From: Alphaproteobacteria bacterium
GTDB taxonomy: Bacteria > Pseudomonadota > Alphaproteobacteria > UBA828
Assembly (NCBI GenBank): GCA_965248825.1
Contig: CBDFKL010000004.1
Span: forward strand, 18,910 to 82,909
DNA length: 64,000 nucleotides
Reading direction: 5' to 3'
This document shows, one piece after another, positions 19,085 through 64,000 of the stretch (its first letter is position 1; each line of letters starts with the position of its first letter). The position numbers and the translations under genes were made by a program. The notes under the pieces were generated by a model. It worked only from the letters and a program-made list of their open reading frames with translations. It did no database searches and was not told the DNA's origin.

Positions 19085-19103
19085 TCCCTGGAACTCCCGT
19101 CAA

Positions 19104-47443: not shown

Positions 47444-47459
47444 GCCGCGCGCGCAAGGG

Positions 47460-48929
47460 ATGGACATCCAGACCGGGCTCTTCGTCGACAACGAGTTCGT
47501 CGATGCGGCCGACGGCGGCGCGATCGACGTGCTCAACCCGCACGACAATTCGACGATCTGCGCGGTCGCCGAGGCGCGCGAGCCGGATATCGACGCCGCC
47601 GTCGACGCCGCGCGGCGCGCCTTCCCGGCCTGGCGCGACACGCCGGCGGCGGAGCGCGGCCATCTGCTGCTCAAGCTCGCCGACGCGATCGAGGCCGAAG
47701 CCGAGGCATTCCAGCGCCTCGAGGCGCTGGACACCGGCCATCCGATCCGTGATACCGAGCGCCTCGACGTGCCGCGAACCGTCGTCACCTACCGCTATTT
47801 CGGCGGCATGGCGGACAAGCTCGAAGGGACGGTCATCCCCGTCGAGCAGGGCTTTCTCAACTATGTCCAGCGCGAGCCGATCGGCGTCGTCGGCCAGATC
47901 GTTCCGTGGAACTTCCCGCTCATGTTCACGGGCTGGAAGCTCGGCCCGGCGCTCGCCGCCGGAAACACGGTCGTGATGAAGCAGGCGGAGCTCACCCCGC
48001 TTACCACCCTCAAGATCGCCGCCCTCGCCCGCGAGGTGGGGTTCCCGCCGGGGGTGCTCAATGTGGTCCAGGGTTATGGCGCGGTCGCCGGGCAGCATCT
48101 CGCCGAGCATCCCGGGGTGGACAAGATTTCGTTCACCGGCTCCACCGCGACCGGTCGCAAGATCGTCGAGGCCTCGGCCGGGAATCTGAAGCGCCTGCAT
48201 CTCGAGCTCGGCGGCAAGGGCGCCAATATCGTGTTCGACGACGCCTATATCCCCGCCGCGATCGGCGGGGCGGCCTTCGCGATCTTCCATAACCAGGGTC
48301 AGGCCTGCATCGCGGGCTCGCGGCTCCTGCTTCATGAAGCGATCAAGGACGAGTTCCTCGACGGCTTCCTCGCGCTCGCGAAGTCGATCAGGCTCGGCGA
48401 TCCGCTCGATCGGGCGACCGAGATGGGCCCCTTGACCTCGGAAATGCATCGTGACCGCGTTCTCACCTATTGCGAGATCGCCCACCAGCAGGGCGCCGAG
48501 ATCCTCACCGGCGGCAAGGCGCCGGACGACGAGGCCCTGTCGAGAGGCTGTTATGTCGAGCCCACCGTCGTTATCGCCCAACCGCAAGATCGGGTTTGTC
48601 AGGAAGAGGTGTTCGGCCCGTTCGTCAGCGTCTCCACCTTTCGCGAGGAGGAGGAGGTGATCGCGCTCGCCAACGGCACCAGCTACGGGCTCGGCGGCGG
48701 GCTGTGGACCGGCAACCTCCAGCGCGCCCATCGCGTTGCGCGTCACATGGCCAGCGGCATGGTCTGGATCAACTGCTACAAGCGGGTGAATCCCGGCTCG
48801 CCCTTCGGCGGCGTAAAGGGCTCGGGCTATGGCCGCGAGATGGGATTCGAGGCGATGCGCGCCTATACCGAGCCGAAGTCGGTGTGGGTCAATGTCGAGG
48901 CCCGGATCCCGCCTTTCTACCCGCGCTAG
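47460..48929 (+). CDS. NAD(P)-dependent aldehyde dehydrogenase (4-hydroxymuconic-semialdehyde-dehydrogenase candidate)
   Basis: 489 aa. Catalytic Glu LELGGKG and Cys FHNQGQACIAGSR. Confidence 0.85.
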   Translation: MDIQTGLFVDNEFVDAADGGAIDVLNPHDNSTICAVAEAREPDIDAAVDAARRAFPAWRDTPAAERGHLLLKLADAIEAEAEAFQRLEALDTGHPIRDTERLDVPRTVVTYRYFGGMADKLEGTVIPVEQGFLNYVQREPIGVVGQIVPWNFPLMFTGWKLGPALAAGNTVVMKQAELTPLTTLKIAALAREVGFPPGVLNVVQGYGAVAGQHLAEHPGVDKISFTGSTATGRKIVEASAGNLKRLHLELGGKGANIVFDDAYIPAAIGGAAFAIFHNQGQACIAGSRLLLHEAIKDEFLDGFLALAKSIRLGDPLDRATEMGPLTSEMHRDRVLTYCEIAHQQGAEILTGGKAPDDEALSRGCYVEPTVVIAQPQDRVCQEEVFGPFVSVSTFREEEEVIALANGTSYGLGGGLWTGNLQRAHRVARHMASGMVWINCYKRVNPGSPFGGVKGSGYGREMGFEAMRAYTEPKSVWVNVEARIPPFYPR

Positions 48930-48936
48930 GGCGCCG

Positions 48937-49806
48937 ATGGCCGAGATCACCTCGCTTCGGGAGGCGGTGGCCGCGCTCATCCGGGACGGCGACACCGTCG
49001 CCATGGAGGGTTTCACCCATCTGATCCCGCACGCCGCGGGCCACGCGGTGATCCGCGCCGGGATCAAGGACCTGACGGCGGTCCGGATGACGCCGGACCT
49101 GATCTACGACCAGCTCATCGGCATGGGCTGCATTCGCCGCCTGGTCTTCTCCTGGGGCGGCAATCCCGGCGTCGGCTCGTTGCACCGCTTTCGCGATGCG
49201 GTCGAGAAGGGCTGGCCGCTGCCGCTCGAGATCGAGGAGCGCAGCCATGCCGATCTCGCGAATGCCTATGTCGCGGGCGCGAGCGGGCTTCCCTTCGCGG
49301 TGATGCGGGGCTATGTCGGCTCGGACCTGCCGGCGCACAACCCGCTCATCAAGACCGTTACCTGCCCGTTTACCGGCGAGGCGCTCGCGGCCACGCCCGC
49401 CGTCCGCCCCGATGTCGCGGTGATCCACGCCCAGCAGGCCGACCGCAAGGGCAATGTCATGCTGTGGGGCATCTCGGGCGTGCAGAAGGAAGCGGCCCTT
49501 GCCGCCAAGCGGGTGATCGTCACGGTCGAGGAGATCGTCGACAGCCTCGAGCCGCGCGCGAGCGCCGTGATTCTGCCACGTTGGGTCGTGAGCGCGGTCT
49601 GCCTCGAGCCCGGCGGCGCGCGCCCCTCCTATGCGCTCGGCTACTACCCGCGCGACAATCGCTTCTACAAAGCCTGGGACGCCATCGCGCGCGAGCGAGA
49701 GACCTTCAGTGCGTGGATGGCGCGCCATGTGCTCGGCACGGAGGATTTCGCGAGCTATGAGCGAAGTCTCGCCGATGCCGAGATGCCTCGGGCGGCCCAT
49801 GGCTGA
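48937..49806 (+). CDS. CoA-transferase subunit A (glutaconate-CoA-transferase-like family I)
   Basis: MAEITSLREAVAALIRDGDTVAMEGF... ATG 48937. Confidence 0.8.
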   Translation: MAEITSLREAVAALIRDGDTVAMEGFTHLIPHAAGHAVIRAGIKDLTAVRMTPDLIYDQLIGMGCIRRLVFSWGGNPGVGSLHRFRDAVEKGWPLPLEIEERSHADLANAYVAGASGLPFAVMRGYVGSDLPAHNPLIKTVTCPFTGEALAATPAVRPDVAVIHAQQADRKGNVMLWGISGVQKEAALAAKRVIVTVEEIVDSLEPRASAVILPRWVVSAVCLEPGGARPSYALGYYPRDNRFYKAWDAIARERETFSAWMARHVLGTEDFASYERSLADAEMPRAAHG

Positions 49807-50578
49807 GCGGGATTTCACCGCCGACGAGATGATGACCGTTGCCGCGGCGCGTCTTCTCGGCAACGACACGGTCTGCTTCGTCGGCATCGGTCTGCCGAGC
49901 GCCGCCGCCAATTTGGCGCGCGCGACCCATGCGCCGGACGTCGTGCTGATCTACGAATCGGGCACGGTTGGCGCGAAGCCGGACGTTCTGCCGCTCTCGA
50001 TCGGCGACGGCGAGCTCGCCGAGACCGCCGACATGGTGGTCTCGACGCCCGAGATCTTCCGCTATTGGCTCCAGGGCGGCCGCATTACCGTGGGGTTCCT
50101 CGGTGCGGCCCAGCTCGATCGCTACGGCAATATCAACACGACGGTCATCGGAGCTTACGAGAAGCCCAAGGTCCGCCTGCCCGGCGCCGGCGGCGCGCCG
50201 GAGATCGCCGCGCTTGCCGGCGAGGTCTTCGTCATCATGCGCCAGTCGTCACGCAGCTTCGTCGAGCGCGTCGACTTCGTGACCTCCGCCGGCCATCTTA
50301 CCGGCGGCGACTGGCGCCGCCGCGCCGAGCTTCCGGGCCGTGGCCCGACCGTGGTGATCACGGATCTCGGTGTTCTCGAGCCCCATCCCGAGAGCCACGA
50401 GCTAATCCTTACCCAAGTCCATCCCGGCATCGCGGTCGAGGAGGTGCGCGCCGCCACCGGCTGGCCCCTTGCGCTTGCCGATCGGCTCGCCACGTCTCCG
50501 GCGCCGACCGACGACGAGCTGGCTGCGCTCCGCGCGCTTCACACGCGCACCGCTGAGGCCCACGGCCGGGCCGCGTGA
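49799..50578 (+). CDS. CoA-transferase subunit B
   Basis: FTADEMMTVAAARLL...LIYESG...GAAQLDRYGNINTTVIG. There is an 8-nt overlap with subunit A. Confidence 0.8.
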   Translation: MAERDFTADEMMTVAAARLLGNDTVCFVGIGLPSAAANLARATHAPDVVLIYESGTVGAKPDVLPLSIGDGELAETADMVVSTPEIFRYWLQGGRITVGFLGAAQLDRYGNINTTVIGAYEKPKVRLPGAGGAPEIAALAGEVFVIMRQSSRSFVERVDFVTSAGHLTGGDWRRRAELPGRGPTVVITDLGVLEPHPESHELILTQVHPGIAVEEVRAATGWPLALADRLATSPAPTDDELAALRALHTRTAEAHGRAA

Positions 50579-50645
50579 CGCGCAGCGCCGCGAGCGGCGT
50601 CGATCCGTCGCGTTCAACGGCCTCCCGGACGGCGCCGGCCGGCGG

Positions 50646-51086
50646 TCACCATTCGCCGGTGTTCGGCATGCTCGTCCACGGTTCCGCCGGTTCGAGCGGA
50701 TCGCCTTTCTGCAGGAGCTCGATCGAGATCCCGTCCGGCGAGCGAATGAAGGCCATGTTCCCGTCGCGCGGCGGTCGGTTGATGATGACGCCTTTTTCCC
50801 TGAGCCCGGCGCAGGTCTCGTAGATGTCGTCCACGCGATAGGCGAGGTGGCCGAAATTGCGCCCGCCGCCGAGATCTTCCGAGTCCCAATTGTAGGTGAG
50901 CTCGACCAGCGGCGTGTGGTCCTCCTCCGCGCGCGCCACGTCGCCCGGCGCCGAGAGAAAGACCAGGGTGAAGCGGCCTTTCTCGCTCTCATAACGGCGC
51001 GTCTCGACCAGACCGAGCTTTGCGCAATAGAAATCGAGGGCCTCTTCGAGATTTCCAACACGAACCATCGTATGCAGATATTCCAC
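50646..51086 (-). CDS. gloA: Lactoylglutathione lyase (glyoxalase I, VOC family)
   Basis: [26 protein letters not shown]...LELTYNW...[11 protein letters not shown]. Confidence 0.9.
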
Positions 51087-51283
51087 GCGCCATTCCCTCT
51101 TCGCAGTGGGCCGATCGCCGATCCGCCGCGATTCGCGCGGCGACCTTCTTTATCCCATATGCTTGCCAACGACAAAATGCGCGCGCAGGGGTCATCGGGT
51201 GGATGATCGGGCAGGCGCAGGCCCCTGCTTTGTCGAGAGCAAACTGAATTGACCGCTTCAGTTGTGGTTGTTGGGCCAGTGGA

Positions 51284-51336
51284 TAAGGGGTCGGGCGCGG
51301 AGCGGCCGTCCCCTTATCCACTGGCCGGTCGCGTCG
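51284..51336. repeat. Perfect 17-bp-arm palindrome (hairpin) inserted in IS copy 2
   Basis: GGCCAGTGGATAAGGGG-(19 nt)-CCCCTTATCCACTGGCC. Copy 1 has only ...TTGGGCC|GGTCGCG... at this point, so 49 bp are inserted with GGCC on both sides. Confidence 0.75.
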
Positions 51337-51343
51337 AAGCGGA

Positions 51344-52519
51344 TCACGCGGCCTGTCTGTGGCTTGTGTTGATGGGCGACCCGTCGGCCTGGTATCGGGC
51401 CAGGCAGCGCGGTCCATGGAAGACGGCGAGGGTGCGGTCGGGGTATTCGTGGACCCGGACCCTTGCCTTGACGTAGTGGCGGCGATGGCGGTCGGGCGGG
51501 ATCGCCAGCACCAGGCGTTTGTAGCGCACGGTGTTGTCGTTTGAGACGGTGCGCTCCTGCTGCACGCAGAGGATGTCGTCGAGGGTCCCGGCGAAGGGCA
51601 CGAAGGCGGTGCCCTCGGCTTCCGGCGGCGCCGCGAAGCGGGCGTTGTGGCCTGGCAGGGAGAGCTCCTTGAGGAAGCGGTTGGCCTGGGCCATGTCGGT
51701 GATGCCGGCGAGCCTGAGCTCCTGGGGCAGGCGCTTCTGCAGGGTGGCGAACATGCGCTCCGAGCGCCCCCTTGCCTCGGGCGAGTAGGCCGGGATCAGC
51801 TCGATGCCGAGCTGGACCAAGGCGCGGCCGAACTGGGTCGGATTGTCCTTGTCGACCGTGCCGCCGGCCTCGGGCGTGTGCCAGTAGTGGCCGGCGCGGT
51901 CGGCATAGAGCGAGCAGAACAGCCCGCGCTCCCGGATCACCTCGTCCAGGGCGGTAAAGCTGCTCATGGTGCCCTCTTCGGCGACGAAGAAGGCCGAGTA
52001 GATCTCACTGGTGGCGTCGTCCATGGTGACGATCAGGTCCCACCACTGATCGGGGACCCACGCGTGGCTCGAGCCGTCTTGATGCAGCATCATGCCGGGC
52101 AGCGCACGCCGCGGCCGCTTGCGCCGGTGCGCCCCGCGCCTCGGCGCCGCCCGTCTTCGCCCGTGCGCCTGCAAGCTCAGCCGCACCCAGTTGTAGCTGC
52201 GCTTGAAGGCATGGTCCGCGACCAGCTTCTCGTGGAAATGCTTGGCGGTGAAGTCCCAGTAGCGGGTGTCGAACAGCGCCAACAGCGCCGTCACCTCGTC
52301 CACTGCCGCGCGCCGCGCCGAGACCCGGCCGAGGCGGCGATCGTAGAGCCCTTCCGCGCCGTCCGCCTGGTAGCGGTCACGCCAACGCCGGAAAGTGCGT
52401 TCCGAAACGCCGAGTACCTCCGCCGCCTCGGCTTGGCTCAAGCCACCCCGATGGGTGCGGCCGTAAATCTCCTCGAACTTCATCAATCTCAGTCCCTGCA
52501 ACTGCTCTGTCCGGCGCAT
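51344..52519 (-). CDS. IS transposase (copy 2)
   Basis: 391 aa with 5 substitutions relative to copy 1 (T/R, V/A, A/T, R/Q, I/V), and intact. Confidence 0.85.
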   Translation of the reverse strand: MRRTEQLQGLRLMKFEEIYGRTHRGGLSQAEAAEVLGVSERTFRRWRDRYQADGAEGLYDRRLGRVSARRAAVDEVTALLALFDTRYWDFTAKHFHEKLVADHAFKRSYNWVRLSLQAHGRRRAAPRRGAHRRKRPRRALPGMMLHQDGSSHAWVPDQWWDLIVTMDDATSEIYSAFFVAEEGTMSSFTALDEVIRERGLFCSLYADRAGHYWHTPEAGGTVDKDNPTQFGRALVQLGIELIPAYSPEARGRSERMFATLQKRLPQELRLAGITDMAQANRFLKELSLPGHNARFAAPPEAEGTAFVPFAGTLDDILCVQQERTVSNDNTVRYKRLVLAIPPDRHRRHYVKARVRVHEYPDRTLAVFHGPRCLARYQADGSPINTSHRQAA

Positions 52520-52678
52520 CCAAACCCTCCACAGCCTGGAGAGCTTCTAAATCCGGACAGATCGTCTGGTACATAAACCGGACATACCGTGTGTTAGCGA
52601 CAGCGCAGGCCCCTGCTTGCGACGGCGTTATGGGATGGTGCTAAGATCAGCGCGTCTCGGAGCGAAACGAGGGCGGCG

Positions 52679-53923
52679 TTGAGCGTGGAGCCGGGTCTTT
52701 TGGAGGGCCTGAGAGTGGTGAGCTTCAACCACTTCCTATTGGGCCCTCATGCGATGCAAACTCTCGGCGATCTGGGCGCCGATGTCATCGCCATCGAACC
52801 CCTCGACGGCGCGTTTCAGCGGCAATGGGGGGGCGCGGACAAGAGAATCGACGGCCAAACGACGCTGTTCCTGTGCGCCAACCGCAACAAGCGGAGCCTC
52901 AGCCTCGACCTGAAGTCGGCCGAGGGTCGGGAGATCGCGTGCAAGCTGATCGCCCGTGCCGACGTGGTCAGCGAGAACTTCCGCCCCGGTGTGATGGAGA
53001 AGCTGGGCTTCGGCTACGCAGCGGTGAAGGAGATCAACCCGGGCGTGATTTATGCCTCGGCGACGGGCTTCGGCGGCGACGGCCCTTACGCCAAGCGGCC
53101 GGGACAGGACCTGTTGGTTCAGGCGCTGTCCGGTTTGGCGGCGATCACCGGCGATGTCGACGATCGCGCGCGCGCTGTCGGGGTCTCCGCCGCCGACCTG
53201 CACGGTGCGGCGTTGCTGGTCACGGGAATCCTGGCGGCCCTGCTCCGGCGGGCGCGGACCGGCGCGGGTTGCAAGGTAGACGTCGACCTGCTGTCGGCCG
53301 CCATCGACCTTCAGACCGAATCGTTCAGCACGTTTCTCAACGGTGCCCGGCCCGAGGACATACGCCCGCCGCGCCGTCTTGCGGGCTGGTACTACCCGGG
53401 GCCCTACGGCATCTATCCGACCGCCGACGGACATATCGCGATCTCGTTCTCCAACCATGAGCACCTGGCCGACGCGCTATCGGTGCCCGCGCTCGCGGCC
53501 ATCCCGAACGCCGACGGCTACGGGCGGCGCGAGGAGATCGTCGGCCTGGTGGCACCGGCGCTGGAAAAGCGAACGACCGGGGAGTGGCTCGCGGCATTCG
53601 AGGGGCGCGACATCTGGTGCGCACCGGTCAACGATTACGAGGCGGTGCTGCGCGATCCCCAGGTGCGCTACAACGAATGCTTTCGAACCATCGCCGGCGC
53701 CACCGGCACGCCGGTCACCATCGTCAGCCACCCGGTGCGGTATGATGGCCGGACGCCCGGGATGCGCTTGCCGCCGCAACCGCTCGGCGCCCAGACTGCG
53801 GAGGTGTTGCGCGAGCTCGGCTACGGGAACGAGGCGATCGATCGATTGGCGGCCGACGACGTCGTCCGGATCCATCGGCCCGTCCCGCCCGGTGCCCGCG
53901 ACGACGCGCCCGCTTCGGAGTAA
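52679..53923 (+). CDS. CaiB/BaiF-family (type III) CoA-transferase
   Basis: LEGLRVVSFNHFLLGPHAMQTLGDLGADVIAIEP...VVSENFRPGVMEKLGFGY. TTG start. Confidence 0.85.
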   Translation: MSVEPGLLEGLRVVSFNHFLLGPHAMQTLGDLGADVIAIEPLDGAFQRQWGGADKRIDGQTTLFLCANRNKRSLSLDLKSAEGREIACKLIARADVVSENFRPGVMEKLGFGYAAVKEINPGVIYASATGFGGDGPYAKRPGQDLLVQALSGLAAITGDVDDRARAVGVSAADLHGAALLVTGILAALLRRARTGAGCKVDVDLLSAAIDLQTESFSTFLNGARPEDIRPPRRLAGWYYPGPYGIYPTADGHIAISFSNHEHLADALSVPALAAIPNADGYGRREEIVGLVAPALEKRTTGEWLAAFEGRDIWCAPVNDYEAVLRDPQVRYNECFRTIAGATGTPVTIVSHPVRYDGRTPGMRLPPQPLGAQTAEVLRELGYGNEAIDRLAADDVVRIHRPVPPGARDDAPASE

Positions 53924-53926
53924 GCA

Positions 53927-54364
53927 ATGTCTGATTTCCACGTCACCGTCGGCGAACGGGTCATGTTTTCCAAGACCGTCGGGGAGAGCGACATCTACAT
54001 GTTCGCCGGCATTACCGGCGATTTTTCCGGCAACCATGTTGATGAGCAATACATGTCGAAGTCCGCCTTCGGGCACCGCATCGCCCACGGCGCCCTGCTC
54101 GTCGGGTTCATGTCGACCACCTCAACCATGATGATTGCGCGCTGCGTCAACGAGGGGATCGATGAGACGCCGGTTTCGCTCGGCTACGACCGTATCCGCT
54201 TTCTCAAGCCGGTCTACATCAACGATACCGTGAGCGTGACCTACACGGTCGCCGAGATCGACACCGAGCGCCGCCGCTCGCTCTCCGATATCGAGGTCGT
54301 CAACCAGAAGGGGGATACGGTGGCGGTGGCCCAGCACATCATCAAATGGGTCCCCAACGGGTAA
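53927..54364 (+). CDS. MaoC-family (R)-specific enoyl-CoA hydratase/dehydratase
   Basis: Hot-dog fold motif FAGITGDFSGNHVDEQY...IAHGALL. Confidence 0.85.
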   Translation: MSDFHVTVGERVMFSKTVGESDIYMFAGITGDFSGNHVDEQYMSKSAFGHRIAHGALLVGFMSTTSTMMIARCVNEGIDETPVSLGYDRIRFLKPVYINDTVSVTYTVAEIDTERRRSLSDIEVVNQKGDTVAVAQHIIKWVPNG

Positions 54365-54401
54365 CCGGCGCGTTCAGGCGGCGAGGATTGGCCGGCCCGC
54401 C

Positions 54402-55601
54402 GTGACGGTGCTCAGCCAGCACCAACACACGCTCTTCTCGGGCGCGCTCGATCTTCTCGCCCGCAAGATGCTCGAGGACGAGGCGACCATCGGCGTCGCC
54501 TTTCCCTATGCGACCGGGCCGGGCGGGGCGTGGCGCACCATGCCTGCGTCGCGCTCGGCCGGCTATGACGGCGCCGCCTGGAGCCACGGCAACTGGTTTT
54601 GCGGCTTTTGGGTCGGCCTGTTGATCGCCTGCCACCTCCATACCGGCGAAGCCCGGTTCCTCGCGCTCGCCCGCGAGCGGATGCGGTTGATTGCGCCGCG
54701 GTCCGAGGACCCCAACACCCACGATATCGGTTTCATCTTTTGCAGCAGCGCCATCCCCGCCCATCGGGTGACCGGTGAGAACTGGTTCGCAGACCTGGCG
54801 ATGCGGGCGGCAGGCAGGCTCCGCGCCCGGCTGGTCACGACGCCGAAGGGCGCCTACGTCTCATCCTGGGGGCCGCTGGATGACGACCGCGGCCGCCGCA
54901 GCTCCGCCATCGACACGATGGCGAACCTGCCACTCCTGTACTGGGCCGCCGACCATGGCGGTGACGCCAGCTTCCGGCTTGTCGGCGAGGCGCATGCGCG
55001 CATGACCCGCCAAGCCTTCATTCGCGCCGACTTCTCGACATACCACGCGGTCGAATATGGCGATGCGGGAGAGCCGGCGCGGGGATTCACCTTCCAGGGC
55101 CACGCGGATGAGAGCTGTTGGTCGCGGGGCCAGGGTTGGGCGATTTACGGCTATGCGGCGACCGCCGGCGCCACGGGCAGCCGCGACCATCTGGCGCTGG
55201 CCGAGGCGCTTGGCCGGTATTACCTCCGGCGGCTCGGCGCCCATCCGATTCCCTATTGGGATTTCGACGATCCGGCGATCCCGGACGCACCGCGGGATTC
55301 ATCGGCCGCCGCGATCGTTGCTGCGGGCTTTCTCACCATGTCGCGCCTGCATCCCGACCCTGCGGAGAGCGATCGATGGGCCCGGCACGCGCTGACCATG
55401 CTGGAAAGCCTCTGCAACGACTATCTCGCGCGGGAGGAGGAGCACCGCGGCCTGCTCAAGCATGGCTGCTATTCGATGCCTCACGGGAACGGCGTCGATA
55501 GCGCGGTCCTGTTCGGCGATTATTTCTTCGTCGAAGCGCTCCTGAGCGTGCTCTCGCCCGGAGCGTTCTCGCCCGCGGTCAGCCGCCTGCCACCGTCATG
55601 A
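54402..55601 (+). CDS. Glycoside-hydrolase-family-88-like (unsaturated glucuronyl hydrolase) six-hairpin protein
   Basis: 399 aa. HDIGFIF, IDTMANLPLLYWAA, SRGQGWAIYGY and IPYWDFD stretches are typical of GH88/GH105-type enzymes. Confidence 0.65.
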   Translation: MTVLSQHQHTLFSGALDLLARKMLEDEATIGVAFPYATGPGGAWRTMPASRSAGYDGAAWSHGNWFCGFWVGLLIACHLHTGEARFLALARERMRLIAPRSEDPNTHDIGFIFCSSAIPAHRVTGENWFADLAMRAAGRLRARLVTTPKGAYVSSWGPLDDDRGRRSSAIDTMANLPLLYWAADHGGDASFRLVGEAHARMTRQAFIRADFSTYHAVEYGDAGEPARGFTFQGHADESCWSRGQGWAIYGYAATAGATGSRDHLALAEALGRYYLRRLGAHPIPYWDFDDPAIPDAPRDSSAAAIVAAGFLTMSRLHPDPAESDRWARHALTMLESLCNDYLAREEEHRGLLKHGCYSMPHGNGVDSAVLFGDYFFVEALLSVLSPGAFSPAVSRLPPS

Positions 55602-56261
55602 CGGGAGCGGGGACAGCGCGCGCAGCGCGGCGCAGGCCGCGCCGTAACCATTGTCGATATTGACGACGACGATGCCGGGGGCGCAGGAGACGAGCATCGA
55701 GCGCAGCGCGGTGATCCCGCCTTCGGCGATGCCGTAGCCGGTCGAGGTCGGCACGGCGATCACCAGGCCCGGCGCCAGACCGCCGACCACCGAGGGCAGC
55801 GCGGCGTCGAGGCCGGCGGCGACGATCACGACGGGGAAAGCCCGAATCTCGTCGATCCGCTCCATCAGGCGCCAGAGGCCCGCGACCCCGACATCGCTGA
55901 TCTCGACCGCGGCGTGACCGTAATAGGCGAGGGTGCGGGCGGCTTCGCGGCTGACTGGGAGGTCGGAGGTGCCGGCGGAAACGATCGCGACGCGGGGCGC
56001 GCCGACGACCGCGGCGACGCTACCGAAAAAGCCGGTGCGCGAGAGCGGCTCGTAGTCGATCCGGCCGGCCAGCGCTTCGGGCAGGGCGTCGCGATGGGCG
56101 GCATCGAGGCGCGTGAGCAGCAGGCTGTGCCCGGCCTCGGCTGCCTCGTCGAGTATTTCCGCGAGATGCTGCGGCGCCTTGCCCGCGCAGAGGATCGCCT
56201 CGTCGAAGCCGAGGCGGGCGCGACGTTGCAGATCGAGCGTGATGTCGCCCGGCGGGCTCAC
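55596..56261 (-). CDS. larB: Nickel-pincer-cofactor biosynthesis protein LarB (PurE-like NaAD carboxylase/hydrolase)
   Basis: About 221 aa from GTG 56261 (GTGA overlap with the larE stop). IVSAGTSDLPV and C-terminal VVNIDNGYGAA motifs. The 395-aa ORF-track version overlaps larE and is rejected. Confidence 0.8.
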   Translation of the reverse strand: MSPPGDITLDLQRRARLGFDEAILCAGKAPQHLAEILDEAAEAGHSLLLTRLDAAHRDALPEALAGRIDYEPLSRTGFFGSVAAVVGAPRVAIVSAGTSDLPVSREAARTLAYYGHAAVEISDVGVAGLWRLMERIDEIRAFPVVIVAAGLDAALPSVVGGLAPGLVIAVPTSTGYGIAEGGITALRSMLVSCAPGIVVVNIDNGYGAACAALRALSPLPS

Positions 56262-57079
56262 GCGCTCGTCGCGGGCCGCAGGAACGCACTGCCGGTGCGA
56301 TAGGGTGCGAAGCGGACCGGGTGGACGCGGCCCTCGGCGGCGAATATCTCGCCGACGGCGGCACCGAGGGCGGCGCGGCGGCTCTCGCTCAGGGCATCGA
56401 GGGTCGGGGTATCGAGCTCGATCACGATGCCGGCTCTGCGCCGGCGGCAGCGCACGGTCTCGGGCCGCAATTGCCGTGCGAGATAGCGTTCCGCGGCGTG
56501 GATCTGCGCGAGCTCGTCGGCCTCGACGCGGAGCCCGGTCTCGATGCGGCTCGAAAGGCAGGGGGCCGCCGGCAGGCTCGCGAGATCGTCGAAGCCGAGC
56601 GCGGCAGCGAGGCTGCGGACCGTCGCCTTGTCGATGCCGGCTTCGACGAAGGGATGGCGCACGCGATGGATCTCTGCGGCCTGGAGCCCCGGCCTCCAGT
56701 CGTCCAGATCGTCCAGGTTCGTGCCGGAGAGCAGGGTTGCATCGGTGCGCGCGGCAAGCGCGCCGTAGAGGTTGGTTTTGCAATAGAAGCAGCGGTTTGC
56801 CGGATTGGCCCGATAGTTCGGATCATCGAATTCGCCGGCATCGAGGACGGTGAGCCGCCAGCCTTCGCGCGACGCATAGGTCCGCACGCGCTCGGTCGCC
56901 TCGGGCGGTACGGCCGGTGAGACGGCATGGAACATGGTGCAGGCGAGGCCGCCTCGGCGCCCGGCGAGCAGCGCCAGGGTCATGCTGTCGACTCCGCCGC
57001 TCACCGCGACCGCCGCCCGGCCGATCTGGTCGAGAACGGCGTTCAGCGCCGGGATGCCGGCGGGCGGCGGCTCAGTCAT
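56258..57079 (-). CDS. larE: LarE (PP-loop ATP-dependent sulfur transferase)
   Basis: PP-loop VSGGVDS, plus the CFYC and PCLSSR cysteine motifs. Confidence 0.8.
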   Translation of the reverse strand: MTEPPPAGIPALNAVLDQIGRAAVAVSGGVDSMTLALLAGRRGGLACTMFHAVSPAVPPEATERVRTYASREGWRLTVLDAGEFDDPNYRANPANRCFYCKTNLYGALAARTDATLLSGTNLDDLDDWRPGLQAAEIHRVRHPFVEAGIDKATVRSLAAALGFDDLASLPAAPCLSSRIETGLRVEADELAQIHAAERYLARQLRPETVRCRRRRAGIVIELDTPTLDALSESRRAALGAAVGEIFAAEGRVHPVRFAPYRTGSAFLRPATSA

Positions 57080-58346
57080 TCTCCGTCACCTCGAGGGCGG
57101 CCCGCTCGGCGTCGCGGCGGCGCTGTTCGCGAACCGCGTGGCTGCTGCTGCTCGCGAGGTCGTTCAGCTCGGCCTTGGCGGTGTATGCGCCCGCCGGCCG
57201 CATGGCGCGTTTCACCCGGACGGTGCCGAGGTCGTCGGCGTGGCGTATCATGTCCCGGGCGAGGACGCTGCGGGAGACCTGTGACCAGCGGACGCCGAGC
57301 GTCGTGGTCTCGCCGAATATCGCGGAGAGCGCCGCCTCGAGCGATACCGGCTCCGCGAGCACCTGAACCTCCGCGAGGATGCGTCCCTTCTTGCCGTAAG
57401 CGGGCCATTGCACGACGTCGAGCACGCCGGGCCGCGCGCGCAGGCGATCGAGGCCGAGCGCGAGATCCTCCGGCGTCTGGTCGTCGACCTCGAAGCGGAG
57501 CACCGCGACCGCTTCTTGCGCGGTATGGGCGACAATCGGCGCGAACTCGATGACGCGAAGGACGTTGCTGAAGCCCGGGAAGCTGCGGCTGCCGAAGCCG
57601 GTGCCGATGCCGACCAGCGTCTCGGGCTCGCGGGCCGGTGTCTGGGCCGGCGCGAGATGATTGAGAATCGCCGCACCGGTCGGCGTGACCCGCTCGCCCT
57701 CGATGCCGTCATCGTGGCTCGCGAAGCCCTGGAGCAGATGCGCCACGGCGGGCGCCGGCACGGGCAAGAGGCCGTGGGCGCTCCGCACCCGGCCTGAGCC
57801 GAGGGGGATCGAGCCGGCCGACCAGCGAGCCTCGCCGAGCGCATCGATCAGGAAGGCGGCCCCGACGATATCGGCGATCGAATCCCAGGCGCCGACCTCA
57901 TGGAACACGACCTCCGCGGGCGCCATCCCGTGCACCGCGCCTTCGGCCTCGGCGAGCAGCGTGAAGATTGCCCGCGCGCGGGAGCGGACTCCGGGTTCGA
58001 TCGGGGCGGCCTGCAGCCGTTCGAGGATGGCCGCGAATCGGACATGCTCATCGGCCTCGTCCGCCGCCGGCAATGTGACCCGGAAGCGCGCGCCGGTCAG
58101 CAGATTATCCCGGTGGGCATCGATGCCGATCTCGACCGACGGCGGAAGCCCGAGCCGGGAGAGCGCCGCTTGCATGCCGGCGCAAAGCTCCGGGCGGGCG
58201 TCGAGCAGCGCGGCGATGAACATGTCGCCCGCCACTCCGCCGACCGGATCGAGGTGAAAGCGCGGCCGCGGATCGGCCGTACCCCGGCTGCCGGTCACGC
58301 CCGCGCCCCCGCCGCGCGGCTCCTCATAGTCCTCGCTGGAGGCCAT
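57072..58346 (-). CDS. larC: LarC (nickel insertion / cyclometallase), single unsplit ORF
   Basis: HLDPVGGVAGDMFIAALLD N-terminal motif. About 424 aa from ATG 58346, preceded by AAGGAGA. There is an 8-nt overlap with larE. Confidence 0.8.
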   Translation of the reverse strand: MASSEDYEEPRGGGAGVTGSRGTADPRPRFHLDPVGGVAGDMFIAALLDARPELCAGMQAALSRLGLPPSVEIGIDAHRDNLLTGARFRVTLPAADEADEHVRFAAILERLQAAPIEPGVRSRARAIFTLLAEAEGAVHGMAPAEVVFHEVGAWDSIADIVGAAFLIDALGEARWSAGSIPLGSGRVRSAHGLLPVPAPAVAHLLQGFASHDDGIEGERVTPTGAAILNHLAPAQTPAREPETLVGIGTGFGSRSFPGFSNVLRVIEFAPIVAHTAQEAVAVLRFEVDDQTPEDLALGLDRLRARPGVLDVVQWPAYGKKGRILAEVQVLAEPVSLEAALSAIFGETTTLGVRWSQVSRSVLARDMIRHADDLGTVRVKRAMRPAGAYTAKAELNDLASSSSHAVREQRRRDAERAALEVTEND

Positions 58347-58353
58347 AGGGCCG

Positions 58354-59145
58354 CTATTCTCCTTTGAATGCCGGTCTCCGCTTCTCGACGAAGGCGGCGA
58401 CACCCTCGGCGAAGTCGGCCGAACCGCGCAGCCTACCATAGGCCTCGCCCTCGAGCGCGATTGCGGCGTGAAGCGGCGCATCCTCGGCCGCGTTGAGCAG
58501 CCTTTTGGCGGTGCGCTGGGCGAGCGGCGAGAAAGCCTTCAGCTCTTCGACCAGCGAATCGGTGGCGGCGGCGAGGCGGTCTTCGGGCACGCAGTCCACC
58601 GCGATACCCCAGGCGTGCGCGTCTTTTCCGGAGAGCCGGCGCGCCCTCATCACCAGGTCCTTGGCGCGTGCAATCCCGATCATCTTGCCGAGCCGGGCCG
58701 AACCGCCGGAACCGGGGATCATGCCGATGCGCTGCTCCGGCAGCCCGAGGCGGGCGGTCTCGGTGACGAGACGAAAGTCGCAGGCCAATGCCAGCTCGAA
58801 GGCGACGCCGAAGCAATAGCCCTGGATCGCCGCGATCACCGGCTTGGCGCAGCGTTCGGGCGCGGAGACGTTGTGCGCGAGCTCCGAAAGCTGCTCGGGC
58901 GATCGTTCCATGAAGCCGGGGATGTCGCCGCCGCTCGAGAAATGCGCGCCCTCGGCGCGAAGGACGATCACCCGCACGCCGTCATCGGCATCGAGTGCGG
59001 CGAGTGCGCGTGCAAGCTGCGCCCGTTCGGGCATGCTCACGACGTTCAGCGGCGGGCGGTCGAGCACGACATCGGCACGCGCCGCCGCGTGGTCGACCTC
59101 CACCCGGAAGCCATCGAGGCCGCGATAGGGATCGCTGGTCGTCAC
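58354..59145 (-). CDS. Crotonase-fold enoyl-CoA hydratase/hydrolase (HmfE-like 2-oxoglutaroyl-CoA hydrolase candidate)
   Basis: VIVLRAEGAHFSSGGDI...IAAIQGYCFGVAFELALACDFRL. GTG 59145 overlaps the ligase stop (GTGA). Confidence 0.8.
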   Translation of the reverse strand: MTTSDPYRGLDGFRVEVDHAAARADVVLDRPPLNVVSMPERAQLARALAALDADDGVRVIVLRAEGAHFSSGGDIPGFMERSPEQLSELAHNVSAPERCAKPVIAAIQGYCFGVAFELALACDFRLVTETARLGLPEQRIGMIPGSGGSARLGKMIGIARAKDLVMRARRLSGKDAHAWGIAVDCVPEDRLAAATDSLVEELKAFSPLAQRTAKRLLNAAEDAPLHAAIALEGEAYGRLRGSADFAEGVAAFVEKRRPAFKGE

Positions 59146-60701
59146 GGTTCTCTCTCGTCCTCTTTCGGTGCACCGGTGCACCCATTGTCGGCTTCGTAAT
59201 CGCCCGCGATCAACAGGCGGCGCAGGATCTTGCCGACCGGCGATTTCGGGATGGCGCGGACGAATATGTAGGCGCGCGGCCGCTTGAAGTCGGCGAGGGC
59301 CGAGGAGCGGCAGTGGGCGTCGAGCGCATGGGCGTCGACCGGGCGGGTGCGGGTGACGAACGCGGCGACCTTCTGCCCCCAACGCTCGTCTGGCAGGCCC
59401 GCCACCGCGACCTCCGCCACCGCCGGGTGGCCCCCTAAGACGCTCTCAATCTCGATCGGCAGCACGTTCTCGCCGCCGGTGATGATCATGTCGTCCACCC
59501 GCCCCGTCACGAACAGATCGCCGTCCGCGTCGCAATAGCCGACATCGCCGGTGAAGTACCAGCCCTGCTTCAGCGCGCGGGCGTCGGCGTCCGGCCGCTG
59601 CCAATAGCCGGCGAAGGCCTCGTCGCTCTCAAGGCTGGCGATCACCTCGCCCTCGGTGCCGGGCGCGACGGTTCGGTTCGGATCGTTCGCACCGATCTCG
59701 ACCACGCGAATGCGCTGGTTGATGCCGGCCTTGCCGGCCGAGCCGGGCTTGGCGCGCGCGTCTTGCGCGATGGTGAAGCTGTAGATCTCCGATGAGCCGT
59801 AGTGGTTGACGAACAGCTCGGGCTCGAAGGCGTCCGTGACACGGCGCAGCAGGGTCTCGGTCATCGGCGCCCCGGCAAAGCCGAGCCTGCGCACAGACGA
59901 GATGTCGGCGCTCGGAAAAACCGTGCTCGCCAGCAGATCGTGATACAGCGTCGGAACCAGATAAAGGCTGGTGATTCGCTCGGTCTCGATCAGCCGGAGC
60001 GCCCGGGTTGCCTCGAAGCGAGGCTGGCAGACGAACGCGCCGTTGAGCAGGGCCATAGCGAGAAGCGCGCGCACGCCCATGGTGTGGTAGAGCGGCATGA
60101 CGCCGAGCGTGCGCTCGCCCGCGCGGTAGCAATTCTGCGCGATATGGGCGAGCGCGGCCGAACGCTCGGCATGATGGCTCCGCGGCACGCCCTTGCTGCG
60201 CCCGGTCGTGCCCGAGGTGTAGAGAATGAGCGAGAGATCGCCCGTGCTCGCGCGAGGCCCGGCGAGCGGCTGCGCCTCGCGGAGCCCGGTGAAATCGAGC
60301 GCACCCTCGGGCACCTCACCGACCGCGATCCGACGAAGCCTGGCGGTGCGGGCCGACCCGGCGACGGCGGCCGCTGCGACATCGTCGAAGGCCAGCGCGG
60401 AGGCGCCGGAATCGAGGAGGAAGAAATCGAGCTCGTCCGCATTGACCCGCCAGTTGAGCGGCACCATGACGAGCCCGGCGAGTTGGCACGCCCAGTGGAG
60501 CGCCGCCATTTCCCATCGATTTTGCAGGACGACGCAAAGCCGGTCTCCGTGCTCGAGCCCGAGCTCGGCTAGGCCGCCGGCGAGGCGGCCCGCGATGTCG
60601 AACCAGGCGGCGTAGTCGAACCGCTCGACACCGTCGACGACGGCGATGGCCTGCGGATCACGTTCGACCGCCGCGATCAGCGTGCGCCCGAGGTCAAGCA
60701 T
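59142..60701 (-). CDS. AMP-forming acyl-CoA synthetase (HmfD-like furoyl-CoA synthetase candidate)
   Basis: 519 aa. The AMP-binding motif is seen as LILYTSGTTGRSKGV, with YFTGD and the C-terminal K of ANL enzymes. Confidence 0.85.
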   Translation of the reverse strand: MLDLGRTLIAAVERDPQAIAVVDGVERFDYAAWFDIAGRLAGGLAELGLEHGDRLCVVLQNRWEMAALHWACQLAGLVMVPLNWRVNADELDFFLLDSGASALAFDDVAAAAVAGSARTARLRRIAVGEVPEGALDFTGLREAQPLAGPRASTGDLSLILYTSGTTGRSKGVPRSHHAERSAALAHIAQNCYRAGERTLGVMPLYHTMGVRALLAMALLNGAFVCQPRFEATRALRLIETERITSLYLVPTLYHDLLASTVFPSADISSVRRLGFAGAPMTETLLRRVTDAFEPELFVNHYGSSEIYSFTIAQDARAKPGSAGKAGINQRIRVVEIGANDPNRTVAPGTEGEVIASLESDEAFAGYWQRPDADARALKQGWYFTGDVGYCDADGDLFVTGRVDDMIITGGENVLPIEIESVLGGHPAVAEVAVAGLPDERWGQKVAAFVTRTRPVDAHALDAHCRSSALADFKRPRAYIFVRAIPKSPVGKILRRLLIAGDYEADNGCTGAPKEDEREP

Positions 60702-61197
60702 CCTCGCCCCGTTGCGCAGTCGCGACCTCGAGCGCCGCCGCGACGATCCCGGAATAGCCCGTGCATCGGCACAGGTGGCCGCTGAGGAGCGCGCGGATCG
60801 CGTGCTCGTCGGGCACCGGCTTGGTCGCGAGATAGGCGCTGAGGGACATCAGGATGCCGGGCGTGCAGAAGCCGCATTGGAGCGCGTGGTGGCGGCGAAA
60901 TGCGGCCTGCAGATCGGTCAATGTCTCGGGGTTTGGCGACAGCCCTTCCACCGTGTCGACGCGCCGACCGTCCGCCTGGACCGCGAGCGTCAGGCAGGCG
61001 CGCACCGGGGCGCCGTCGAGGTGAACCGTGCAGGCGCCGCAGACACCGTGCTCGCAGCCGACATGGACTCCGGTCGCTCCCAGCTCGTGGCGTAGGAAAT
61101 CGCTCAGCAATGTCCGCGGCTCGGCCCAGCCGCCGGCGCCGCGGCCATTGAGGGTGAGGTCGACCCGGTAGCGCTCGTCCTGGGTCAGCCTCGACAT
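60694..61197 (-). CDS. (2Fe-2S)-binding small subunit of a molybdenum hydroxylase
   Basis: CEHGVCGACTV, CGFCTPG and CRCTGY clusters. Confidence 0.9.
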   Translation of the reverse strand: MSRLTQDERYRVDLTLNGRGAGGWAEPRTLLSDFLRHELGATGVHVGCEHGVCGACTVHLDGAPVRACLTLAVQADGRRVDTVEGLSPNPETLTDLQAAFRRHHALQCGFCTPGILMSLSAYLATKPVPDEHAIRALLSGHLCRCTGYSGIVAAALEVATAQRGEDA

Positions 61198-62012
61198 GAC
61201 TGCGCCTCCAGCACGGTCTTTCTGCCGAGACGCCGGACCAGCTCGCGCCGATAGCGCGCGCTGGCATGGCTGTCGTCGGCCGCGTCGAGGGACCAGGCGA
61301 GCTCGTTGAGCGCGTCGTCGAGGGCGTCGCCCGAAAGCGCCGGCCAGTCGCGAATGGCCGGTCGGTCCGCGACGCCGCCGATGCCGACCCGCAGACCGTC
61401 GGCGTTCGCGATCGCGGCAACCGCGACGATCGCGAAATCGCCGTGCCGCCGCGCGAATTCGGCGAAGGCGTAGCCGGCGCCCGTCTCGGCGGTCGGGACG
61501 CGCACGGCCGCGACCATCTCGTCCGGACGGCAGGCGGTCGAGAGCATGCCGGTCTGGAACGCCGACGCAGGCAGAGTCCTGCTATCGCGGCGCGATCTGA
61601 GAACGACCTCGCCGTCGAGCGTCGCGAGGCAGAGCGGCAGCTCCGCGCTCGGGTCGGCGAACGCGATCGAGCCGCACACGGTGCCTCGGCTGCGGGTCTG
61701 AACATGGCCGACGAAGGGCAGCGCCTGCGCAAGCAGGGGCGCCCGGCGGGCGAGCGCCGGCCAGGCTTCGAGGTCCGCCTGGGTCACCGCCGCGCCGATT
61801 TCGATGGCGGTGCGATCATCGCGGATGTCGGCGTGATTCCCGAGTCGTGATATGTCGATGAGGACCGACGGCTCGACCAGACGCATATTGAGCATCGGCA
61901 TCAGAGTCTGGCCGCCGGCAAGCAGCCGCGCGTCGTCGCCCGCTTCGGCCAGCGCGTCGAGCGCCTCGTGCTCGTCGTTCGCGAGCACATAGTCGAAGGG
62001 CGGCGGCTTCAC
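61185..62012 (-). CDS. FAD-binding medium subunit of a molybdenum hydroxylase
   Basis: FDYVLANDEHEALDAL...LLAGGQTL...TRSRGTVCGS. GTG 62012 overlaps the large-subunit stop (GTGA). Confidence 0.85.
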   Translation of the reverse strand: MKPPPFDYVLANDEHEALDALAEAGDDARLLAGGQTLMPMLNMRLVEPSVLIDISRLGNHADIRDDRTAIEIGAAVTQADLEAWPALARRAPLLAQALPFVGHVQTRSRGTVCGSIAFADPSAELPLCLATLDGEVVLRSRRDSRTLPASAFQTGMLSTACRPDEMVAAVRVPTAETGAGYAFAEFARRHGDFAIVAVAAIANADGLRVGIGGVADRPAIRDWPALSGDALDDALNELAWSLDAADDSHASARYRRELVRRLGRKTVLEAQSCRG

Positions 62013-64000
62013 GGCTCGCGGCCGGGCAGGGGCCGCCGTCGCGGGCCGGCTCGCGGCACCTCACGGTGTCGTGGTGCTTCCTCCGCCGCCGAGGGCGCAG
62101 GCGACGCGGGCTCCGGGCCGTGGATCAGGGCGCTGATCCGGGACGGGGTCAGGGGCAGGTCGAGGCGGGCTGCGCCGAGCGCGTCGGCGACGGCATTGGC
62201 GAGGCAGACCGGGGTCGTCATGCAATTGCCCTCGCCGACTCCCTTCGCGCCGAGCGGGGTCACCGGGCTCGGCGTGTCATGGTGGAGGATCACCGGATCG
62301 GGAATCTCGCAGGCCGTCGGCACCAGATAGTCGGCGAGCGTGCCGGACAGGAAGCTCCCGTCCTCGTCATAGATGAACTCTTCATAGAGCGCGGCGCCGA
62401 CGGCATGGGCGAAGGCACCGCGGATCTGCCCATCGACCAGGGCCGGGTTGAGGCGGCGGCCGGCATCGTGGGTGGTGACGTAGCGATCGATGGCGACGGC
62501 GCCGGTGACGGGGTCGATCTCGACGCCGCAGAAATCGAAGATGAACCCGTAGGCCGCCGAGCTGTTGATCAGATCGTCGTCGGTCGGCGGCGCGAGCACC
62601 GGCGGCGTCCAACTCGCGGTCTCGTAGACGGCGGCAGGCACCCCCTGCGGCAGGCTGCTCGGCGACCAATGGGCAAGCGCTGCGATCCGGCGGAAGTCGA
62701 GGGCGTTATCGGGATTGTCGGCGGCGACGATCTTGCCGGCTTCGAACCTGAGCGCCTCGGGCGCCGTGTTGAGCCTCTGGCTCGCGATCCGGGCCAGGCG
62801 CTCTTTGATCCGCTCGGCGGCCAAGTGCGCCGCGCCGGCGACGGCGCCTGAGAAGCGGCTCGAATAGTTGCCGGCCGCGATCGACCAAGGATCCTTTTGC
62901 GTGTCGTGTTCGAGATTGACCGTAATTCGGGCCGGCTCAAGGCCGAGGGAGGCGCCCACGACCTGCGCGAGCGCGGTGCGGTGGCCTTGACCCTGCGGCA
63001 GTGAGTCGGCGGTGACGGTGACGCCTCCCAGGGGATCCACGGCGACCGTGGCGTGGGCGACGGCGCCGTCCTTCGGGCCGGCGGCGCGGCGGTCCTCCGC
63101 GCTGAGTACGGTGGTGATATAGCCCATATTGGAAATGCTGGGCTCGACCGCCGCGGCATAGCCGATGCCGTACAGCCGGCCGCCGGCGCGCGACGCCTCG
63201 CGCTTCGCGCGGAGCGCGTCGAGTCCGCCCCCGGCGACGGCGTGGTCGACGGCGCCGTGGAAATCTCCCGAGTCCAGGCTGGCACCGGCGGCGGCGCGAT
63301 AGGGGAAGGCCTCGCCCGGCACCAGATTGCGGGTGATCACGTCGAGCGGGTCGAGCTCGAGGGTGACCGCAATCCGTTGCATCAGCCGTTCGAGCGCGTA
63401 GTAGAGCTGCGGTCCGCCGAAACCGCGGTTGAGACCGGAGGGAGTCTTGTTGGTCACGACGACCCGATTCGTCACCGCGAGATGGGCGATGCGGTAGGGA
63501 CCGGTGAGATTGCCGTGGTTGCGATAGAGCGTCGCGGGCTCGGGCGCGCGCAGATAGGCGCCGCAATCCTCGAGCTGATCGAGGCGCAACGCCGTGACCG
63601 TACCGTCGGCCTCGACCGCCGCTTGGATGCGGGTCACCCGGTTGGTCGCCGACGTCGCGGCCAGCAGATGTTCGAGCCGGTCCTCGATCCACTTGACCGG
63701 TCTTGCGGCCTTCCGCGCGGCGAGCGCCATCGCGACGATGGAGGGGAAGATCGCCTGCTTAACCCCGAAGCTGCCGCCGGAATCGGGCGGCGAGCGCAGT
63801 CGGAGCCGCGGCCCCGGTACCTTGAGCGCCCGTGCCATGACCGGGTGCAGCGCCAACGGACCCTGAAAGTTGGAGAGCACGTCATAACCGCCGTCGCCGG
63901 GATGATAGGAGGCAATCAAGCCGAGGCACTCGATCGGCGTACACGCATTGCGCGGATAGCGCACGGTGGTCTCGATTCGGTTGGCCGCTCTTGCGAACGC
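62009..64000 (-). CDS. Xanthine-dehydrogenase-family molybdopterin-binding large subunit (HmfA-like candidate), 5' end outside window
   Basis: The frame stays open to the window edge (...AFARAANRIETTVRYPRNACTPIE...). GGSFGVK and NRGFGGPQ motifs. The printed last sequence line is one base short; the ORF track implies a g at 63961. Confidence 0.85.
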   Translation of the reverse strand, partial: AFARAANRIETTVRYPRNACTPIECLGLIASYHPGDGGYDVLSNFQGPLALHPVMARALKVPGPRLRLRSPPDSGGSFGVKQAIFPSIVAMALAARKAARPVKWIEDRLEHLLAATSATNRVTRIQAAVEADGTVTALRLDQLEDCGAYLRAPEPATLYRNHGNLTGPYRIAHLAVTNRVVVTNKTPSGLNRGFGGPQLYYALERLMQRIAVTLELDPLDVITRNLVPGEAFPYRAAAGASLDSGDFHGAVDHAVAGGGLDALRAKREASRAGGRLYGIGYAAAVEPSISNMGYITTVLSAEDRRAAGPKDGAVAHATVAVDPLGGVTVTADSLPQGQGHRTALAQVVGASLGLEPARITVNLEHDTQKDPWSIAAGNYSSRFSGAVAGAAHLAAERIKERLARIASQRLNTAPEALRFEAGKIVAADNPDNALDFRRIAALAHWSPSSLPQGVPAAVYETASWTPPVLAPPTDDDLINSSAAYGFIFDFCGVEIDPVTGAVAIDRYVTTHDAGRRLNPALVDGQIRGAFAHAVGAALYEEFIYDEDGSFLSGTLADYLVPTACEIPDPVILHHDTPSPVTPLGAKGVGEGNCMTTPVCLANAVADALGAARLDLPLTPSRISALIHGPEPASPAPSAAEEAPRHREVPRAGPRRRPLPGREP

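Follow-up and report, generated by a model that had tools for sequence, protein, structure and literature searches.

In Lactiplantibacillus plantarum the lar operon consists of larA-E together with a nickel transporter. Users of the nickel-pincer nucleotide (NPN) other than LarA have since become an active field, and hundreds of genomes make NPN without LarA. The first such clients to be described, the aldo-keto reductase (AKR) NphT and an ornithine cyclodeaminase that depends on NPAD, both came to light through the surroundings of larC, and LarA is missing from 2,108 of 11,067 LarC neighbourhoods; mining neighbourhoods of this kind uncovered NphT (Semersky et al. 2026, PMC13524815). The hmf genes for catabolism of 2-furoate form a second system, in which the gene order is reported to be highly conserved (PMC3223595, PMC8091172) and of which Cupriavidus pinatubonensis JMP134, a strain that grows on furoate, has hmfABCDE only (PMC8091172). 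The two systems meet in a 64,000-nt stretch of contig CBDFKL010000004.1 (GCA_965248825.1, positions 18,910-82,909, forward strand; hereafter the window), from an uncultured organism whose close relatives are all metagenome-assembled genomes. Here an hmfABCDE-like gene chain runs directly into larC-larE-larB, with no known NPN client in the window. The reading that we favour, with some reserve, is that two ordinary modules share one transcription unit, in which larCEB is co-expressed with furoate catabolism and serves a client encoded elsewhere.

The literature yielded no published description of a lar-hmf operon, as an earlier note on this DNA had also supposed. Nickel, Lar and dienelactone hydrolases go unmentioned in a survey that covers the hmf clusters of 99 proteobacteria (PMC8091172), and crotonases, ligases and molybdenum enzymes are not mentioned as larC neighbours in PMC13524815. 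The same paper makes the earlier note's statement that all characterized clients are of LarA type outdated, given NphT and the ornithine cyclodeaminase.

An hmf gene chain that continues into larCEB

The five upstream genes follow the HmfABCDE order of large subunit, FAD subunit, 2Fe-2S subunit, CoA ligase and crotonase-fold hydrolase, and we accept them as predicted hmfABCDE orthologues. Over their full length they are, from hmfA to hmfE, 64, 54, 67, 61 and 65% identical to the colinear cluster on plasmid p2 of C. pinatubonensis HN-2 (L174), used as a proxy for C. basilensis HMF14. The HmfA-like alignment to the C. pinatubonensis large subunit covers 633 aa at 64%, and identity to orthologues within the clade described below is 81-85%. 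The domain set of a three-subunit molybdenum/iron-sulfur/FAD enzyme is complete (MoCoBD_1/2, FAD_binding_5, Fer2/Fer2_2), the hammerhead domain being present in the full-length orthologue of L001. Several ligase homologues of 65-79% identity carry the Joint Genome Institute (JGI) label '2-furoate---CoA ligase', and the solved structures nearest to the HmfD-like ligase are aromatic-acid CoA ligases. In more distant relatives that lack lar, genes for UbiD (HmfF-like) or a GMC oxidoreductase (HmfH-like) adjoin the cluster. Scored against the other enzymes that had been raised as possibilities, 4-hydroxybenzoyl-CoA reductase and nicotinate dehydrogenase, the large subunit does worse than against CoxL/Qor-type proteins. 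The earlier hmfABCDE reading is thus backed by identities of 54-67%, by colinearity, by the JGI ligase names and by the UbiD and GMC neighbours.

The three downstream genes all exceed the NCBIfam equivalog cut-offs, which bears out their earlier naming as LarC, LarE and LarB. LarC scores 181 bits for LarC1 and 102 bits for LarC2, with both parts in one open reading frame (ORF; cut-offs 90 and 50 bits), LarE scores 229 bits with TIGR00268 (cut-off 150) and LarB 246 bits with NF033503 (cut-off 175). At this equivalog level they are predicted to be canonical LarC, LarE and LarB, the NPN biosynthesis set, and they are 50-75% identical to the LarB, LarC and LarE that adjoin LarA in other genomes. 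The LarE carries SGGVDS at residue 27, CFYC at 97-100 and Cys174; a CXXC-C motif defines the [4Fe-4S]-dependent, non-sacrificial LarE described for Thermotoga (PMC9283937). Rfam models for NiCo and Moco riboswitches gave zero matches in the window or in six related loci.

The coupling between the two sets is tight. On the minus strand, from 55596 to beyond 64000, eight ORFs with zero internal stops are chained by six overlaps and one 7-nt gap (Table 1); in chain order the overlaps measure 4, 13, 8 and 4 nt before the gap and 8 and 4 nt after it. The 4-nt overlaps are GTGA at hmfA/hmfB (62009-62012), hmfD/hmfE (59142-59145) and larE/larB (56258-56261), the 13-nt overlap joins hmfB to hmfC, and the 8-nt overlaps join hmfC to hmfD and larC to larE. 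At the gap, the hmfE stop TAG (58356-58354) is followed after 7 nt by the larC ATG at 58346. At the far end the stop codons of larB and of a convergent GH88-like gene (54402-55601) overlap. Re-reading of ORFs and junctions matched the chain in the earlier note to the base, including the AAGGAGA that it had proposed as ribosome-binding site of larC within the 3' end of the crotonase gene. A simple scan of the minus strand between 54 and 64 kb, covering one promoter type, found no sigma-70-like promoter and no terminator-like hairpin.

Table 1. Features of the hmf-lar chain in window coordinates, with predicted functions
Feature	Coordinates	Strand	Domains, family or remark
hmfA-like Mo-hydroxylase large subunit, furoyl-CoA dehydrogenase type	62009..64000	-	MoCoBD_1, MoCoBD_2; 5' end past window
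hmfB-like FAD-binding subunit	61185..62012	-	FAD_binding_5 + CO_deh_flav_C
hmfC-like 2Fe-2S subunit	60694..61197	-	Fer2 + Fer2_2
hmfD-like 2-furoate-CoA ligase, AMP-forming	59142..60701	-	AMP-binding + AMP-binding_C
hmfE-like crotonase-fold 2-oxoglutaroyl-CoA hydrolase	58354..59145	-	ECH_1
Shine-Dalgarno AAGGAGA of larC, within the last codons of hmfE	58358..58364	-	read from sequence
larC, CTP-dependent nickel-inserting cyclometallase, single ORF of 424 aa	57072..58346	-	LarC1 + LarC2; Pfam Ni_insertion E 9e-93
larE, ATP-dependent sulfur insertase, CXXC-C ([4Fe-4S]) type	56258..57079	-	TIGR00268
larB, nicotinic acid adenine dinucleotide (NaAD) C5-carboxylase/hydrolase, end of chain	55596..56261	-	NF033503

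Conservation and origin of the fusion

Conservation was followed in two samples. A scan anchored on LarC, with one genome per species, gave 80 loci (L-numbered), and a second sample anchored on the ligase, and hence unbiased with respect to lar, includes L012/L083, L081, L082, L169, L170 and L171. Of the 80 loci, 11, each from another species-level genome (L001-3, 5, 7-11, 13 and 22), have all eight genes in the order of the window, at 70-85% protein identity. Two short contigs (L004 and L006) carry the part of the chain that they cover, and the ligase-anchored L169 also has the chain. The junction itself is kept: the TTCAAGGGAGAGTAG-N7-ATG arrangement between hmfE and larC (GGGAGAG-TAG-N7-ATG) is found in 8 loci and a gap of 1-2 nt in 4 more, which makes 12 clade loci with a Shine-Dalgarno sequence within hmfE and 1-7 nt to larC. 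The neighbourhood survey in related genomes thus shows the adjacency in 11 species-level genomes, and this clade-wide conservation, together with the conserved coupled junction, contradicts the suggestion that the linkage is fortuitous in the sense of a one-off accident.

Ratios of dN/dS lie at 0.13-0.38 across all eight genes and at 0.17-0.38 for the lar genes. Purifying selection is therefore similar on all eight, which shows that the lar genes are functional, NPN production itself being a prediction from their sequences. In a neighbour-joining tree of LarC, LarE and LarB the hmf-linked lar genes are monophyletic and lie among ordinary lar genes; since they form one clade, the fusion arose once. 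Its presence follows ligase identity, with lar present at 72% and above (L012/L083 and L169) and absent at 69% and below (L170, L171, L081 and L082); the Cupriavidus hmf cluster also lacks lar. About 90 distinct ligase clusters fall within the band of 72-81% identity, and the fused form is therefore common in environmental data. All genomes with the full chain come from uncultured organisms and are labelled 'Alphaproteobacteria' or 'Rhodospirillales'. A search of plasmids for the fusion in a cultured relative found none, the top LarC match being 50% identical.

Mobile elements have entered the chain between hmfA and hmfB in two relatives, as a DDE transposase in L009 (4511-5851) and a HicAB toxin-antitoxin pair in L169 (8184-8590), and the rest of the chain, including lar, is intact in both.

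The gene ahead of hmfA and the lactone step

In the relatives one more gene stands at the start of the chain, a fusion of dienelactone hydrolase (DLH) and SnoaL of ~410 aa (L001-L013, at ~1700-3900) that would lie beyond 64000 in the window; the genes further upstream vary. The DLH-SnoaL family is widespread and highly conserved, its DLH Cys-His triad is intact, and it closely matches a Pseudomonas dienelactone hydrolase. For opening of the lactone in the Trudgill pathway the literature names no enzyme and gives the step as 'spontaneous or catalysed' (PMC3223595). As first gene of the hmf operon, DLH-SnoaL is suitably placed for a role in this step, and the protein probably opens the lactone tautomer of 5-hydroxy-furoyl-CoA, which makes it a candidate enzyme for the lactone-opening step.

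A lar-dependent role for DLH-SnoaL was considered and rejected. The lar genes are absent from the neighbourhood of DLH-SnoaL in 80 of 80 sampled metagenome loci, in Amorphus, where DLH-SnoaL also stands alone, and in anthranilate clusters that have no lar.

Known NPN clients in and around the chain

LarA was sought with three profiles, built from 31 LarA that stand beside larCEB in other loci (one of them checked by Pfam, with Lar_N + LarA_C), from a divergent Lar_N-like family (c56) and from a 472-aa LarA subfamily of 120 sequences. None matched the six-frame translation of the 64 kb (best E values 0.73 and 0.11 for two of them, and none below E = 1 for the third), in agreement with the earlier statement that the window has no LarA; LarA is recovered by the same three profiles from 32 of the remaining loci. 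For further clients, a DUF362 profile and two AKR profiles were used, the latter representing families taken from lar-adjacent genes. Neither the DUF362 profile nor the two profiles for NphT-type AKR matched the six-frame window, and all three readily pick up their targets elsewhere; Pfam scans of essentially all window genes gave no Aldo_ket_red, no ornithine cyclodeaminase and no other obvious candidate. In the clade relatives, the LarA, AKR and DUF362 profiles found nothing within ±10 kb of the chain. A nickel transporter was also considered, in the form of an ABC system that adjoins the cluster in relatives; its binding protein is DppA-like and not clearly NikA.

Lar genes beside other operons

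A second lar-linked operon without LarA occurs in Rhizobiaceae (L015, 1-12651; L086-L088, 1-14915), where a kynurenine/anthranilate-CoA cluster ends in DLH-SnoaL, a 3-hydroxyacyl-CoA dehydrogenase (3HCDH) and larC-larE-larB. It also encodes tryptophan dioxygenase, kynureninase, a 2-aminobenzoyl-CoA monooxygenase/reductase-like protein and an acyl-CoA dehydrogenase. The 3HCDH upstream of larC was considered as a switch from NAD to NPN; this idea is weakened by an ordinary GxGxxG motif and by one frameshift that three independent contigs of another species share, the gene being intact in L015.

Beside the lar-less hmf genes of L171 (12389-15803) lie a thiamine-diphosphate enzyme, a 105-aa ORF and, two genes from hmf, a 472-aa LarA homologue in which the NPN-binding Lys and the nickel His are retained but only one catalytic His. 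A general link between hmf and LarA is unsupported, as the same LarA subfamily, with the small ORF, stands in an unrelated context in L173.

Other loci of the LarC sample have neighbours of their own. In L023 (8351-9979) and L026 (8601-9926) a divergent family, ~440 aa long in L026, lies directly upstream of larC; it reaches 25.3 bits with Pfam Lar_N (cut-off 23.3), is missed by the ordinary LarA profile and may be an overlooked LarA branch. In gammaproteobacterial loci (L017, 5683-8171; L051, 2919-7939; L053) DUF362 and a polyferredoxin adjoin larCEB in a recurrent, LarA-less arrangement, with DUF6599 and an aldo-keto reductase also beside larCEB in L051 and L053.

Surroundings of the chain in the window

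Two insertion sequence (IS) copies of ~1.3 kb (42541-43851 and 51245-52584) are 97.7% identical, share their orientation and have terminal inverted repeats of ~31 nt; the 400-aa product of each copy, presumably its transposase, has helix-turn-helix domains at the N terminus. In relatives a CoA-transferase gene directly adjoins larB; here the two are separated by a ~5-kb stretch that contains the second IS copy, and the local break of synteny beside larB is therefore probably IS-mediated. Between the two copies, 45882-51149 holds genes for ring cleavage of hydroquinone type (a PnpCD-like dioxygenase, an aldehyde dehydrogenase, two CoA-transferase subunits and a glyoxalase-fold gene), and its second CoA-transferase subunit is 81% identical to the larB neighbour of the relatives. 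Convergent on larB, on the plus strand at 52679-55601, are a family III CoA-transferase, a MaoC-like dehydratase and a 399-aa protein, a trio absent from the relatives' loci; the last has no Pfam match and resembles GH88 unsaturated glucuronyl hydrolases (1vd5, E 2e-56).

A second, unrelated set of the xanthine-dehydrogenase family (833-aa large subunit, small ORF and FAD subunit) lies on the minus strand at 14708-20252 and adjoins an AtuA-family gene. Nearby recA, alaS and an isocitrate/isopropylmalate dehydrogenase-family gene suggest a chromosomal rather than plasmid location.

Two modules in one transcription unit, or one pathway?

The favoured arrangement can be drawn as two ordinary routes encoded in one transcription unit. 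In the first, HmfD would ligate 2-furoate to CoA, HmfABC (molybdenum, 2Fe-2S and FAD subunits) would hydroxylate furoyl-CoA at C5, the lactone tautomer would be opened, in relatives probably by the DLH-SnoaL encoded just upstream of hmfA, and HmfE would release 2-oxoglutarate. In the second, NPN would be made from NaAD, with LarB carboxylating and hydrolysing, the [4Fe-4S]-type LarE thiolating twice and LarC inserting nickel. The Hmf enzymes would not be NPN users, and NPN would go to a client encoded outside both operon and window, either a homologue of LarA or some other enzyme that uses NPN. A single fusion in the ancestor of one clade of alphaproteobacteria would have brought larC to 1-7 nt downstream of hmfE with its ribosome-binding site within hmfE, and the outcome would be that NPN synthesis is switched on along with furoate catabolism.

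Several observations sit uneasily with this picture. No client was found in the window, which includes 55 kb downstream of larB, or within ±10 kb in relatives; these are the regions that the searches covered, and it is from them that we infer a client elsewhere. The sister lar lineage again stands on an aromatic acyl-CoA operon, a hint that NPN is tied to such pathways, and the LarA homologue near the lar-less hmf genes of L171 hints likewise at a functional tie. Tight coupling across a family-level radiation also exceeds what neutral accident usually keeps.

Could larCEB instead be expressed separately? A larCEB promoter would then lie inside the 3' end of hmfE, and the fusion would have no regulatory meaning and merely be unbroken, which we regard as unlikely. 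Such an account finds a foothold in L014, sister to the clade in the lar tree, where the rest of hmf is lost and larCEB is kept behind exactly the final 96 codons (288 nt) of hmfE, and in L012, where DLH-SnoaL-hmfABC has shifted ~8.6 kb away and hmfD-hmfE-larCEB stay together with a 127-nt hmfE-larC spacer. It also fits the fact that larC-larE-larB is a self-contained block in nearly all of the 80 sampled loci. However, the remaining junctions of the chain are all overlaps, the short gap with its Shine-Dalgarno sequence inside hmfE recurs in 12 clade loci, and the minus-strand scan, for its one promoter type, offers neither a promoter nor a terminator-like site at which the two sets could be parted. 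Nor do the Lar proteins look like enzymes with a new substrate. The proposal that they carboxylate, thiolate or metallate a furan or pyridine carboxylate instead of NaAD draws on a chemical analogy only, between C5 carboxylation by LarB and the C5-substituted furan carboxylates of the pathway. Scores above equivalog cut-offs for all three, 50-75% identity to LarB, LarC and LarE beside LarA, the retained SGGxDS and CXXC-C motifs and a place in the tree among ordinary lar genes disfavour this suggestion of the earlier note, and we hold it to be very improbable indeed.

Is one of the operon's own proteins the client? An HmfE-like crotonase, DLH-SnoaL or Mo-hydroxylase acting as a new NPN client, with one step of furoyl-CoA catabolism in the clade then relying on nickel-pincer hydride chemistry, would suit the conserved translational coupling of larC to hmfE and the lack of a known client within reach; the same logic, applied to larC neighbourhoods without LarA, yielded NphT (PMC13524815), and DLH-SnoaL stands beside larCEB in two different operon types. 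Yet orthologous Hmf proteins work in clusters that have no lar, and comparison of lar-linked with lar-less orthologues gives each Hmf protein 0-5 fixed differences, none of them to Lys, His or Cys. The HmfB-like protein retains its FAD-binding domains and the HmfE-like protein both crotonase catalytic Glu positions (FELAL at residue 116, LPEQR at 135), DLH-SnoaL occurs without lar in the 80 metagenome loci and in Amorphus, and the candidate folds have no NAD(P)-type site, the kind from which the known non-LarA clients evolved. As hmf without lar is functional elsewhere and lar persists without hmf in L014, there is no obligate functional dependence between the two, and a client of this kind seems to us a poor bet. 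The earlier idea of an unrecognised client linked to the acyl-CoA pathway keeps a place on these terms, weakened by the working lar-less hmf clusters, by L014 and by the missing fixed Lys, His or Cys. Its boldest form, in which furoyl-CoA catabolism in the clade has an NPN-dependent step catalysed by a fold so far not known for NPN binding (the HmfE-like crotonase, DLH-SnoaL or a Mo-hydroxylase partner), would explain why larC is coupled to hmfE; we consider it a long shot.

The shared transcription unit with an outside client remains the account that we prefer, and the locus is of use on either outcome. It is a conserved case of lar genes welded to a well-understood catabolic operon with no known client nearby, and as such a modest lead for client hunting. 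If NPN serves the pathway, this would mean new nickel biochemistry in furan degradation and a further NPN scaffold, one not derived from NAD(P) enzymes. Otherwise it stands as a caution to those who look for clients by neighbourhood, as lar genes would then be able to ride unrelated operons over long evolutionary times.

Comparison with known systems

The hmfABCDE of Cupriavidus has the same five genes in the same order, and the start/stop overlaps of the chain are typical there too. The Cupriavidus cluster (L174) reads LysR, large subunit, FAD subunit, 2Fe-2S subunit, ligase, crotonase, major facilitator superfamily (MFS) transporter and XdhC (hmfR-ABCDE-T), whereas next to the window chain neither a LysR regulator nor an MFS transporter nor XdhC is seen. 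Instead, the clade has a DLH-SnoaL gene before hmfA (in the relatives) and larC-larE-larB after hmfE. The large subunit also differs, being ~810 aa in the clade without a C-terminal CoxG/SRPBCC tail and 1012 aa with that tail in Cupriavidus.

As in the L. plantarum lar operon, LarB, LarC and LarE are encoded contiguously and in one orientation, here at equivalog level. The window set differs in its lack of LarA, in its C-E-B order and in its place at the tail of a catabolic operon. Its LarE is of the CXXC-C [4Fe-4S] type, while that of L. plantarum is of the sacrificial single-Cys type, and it has no dedicated nickel transporter like that of L. plantarum.

The neighbourhoods that revealed NphT likewise have larC, larE and larB without LarA in reach; unlike them, the window operon contains no AKR or other NAD(P)-type oxidoreductase. 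A further parallel is the Rhizobiaceae operon. Its larCEB genes branch as sister to those linked with hmf, and its LarB is 74% and its DLH-SnoaL 64-65% identical. It too is an operon of aromatic acyl-CoA type with a ligase and a crotonase, these being only ~30% identical to those of the window.

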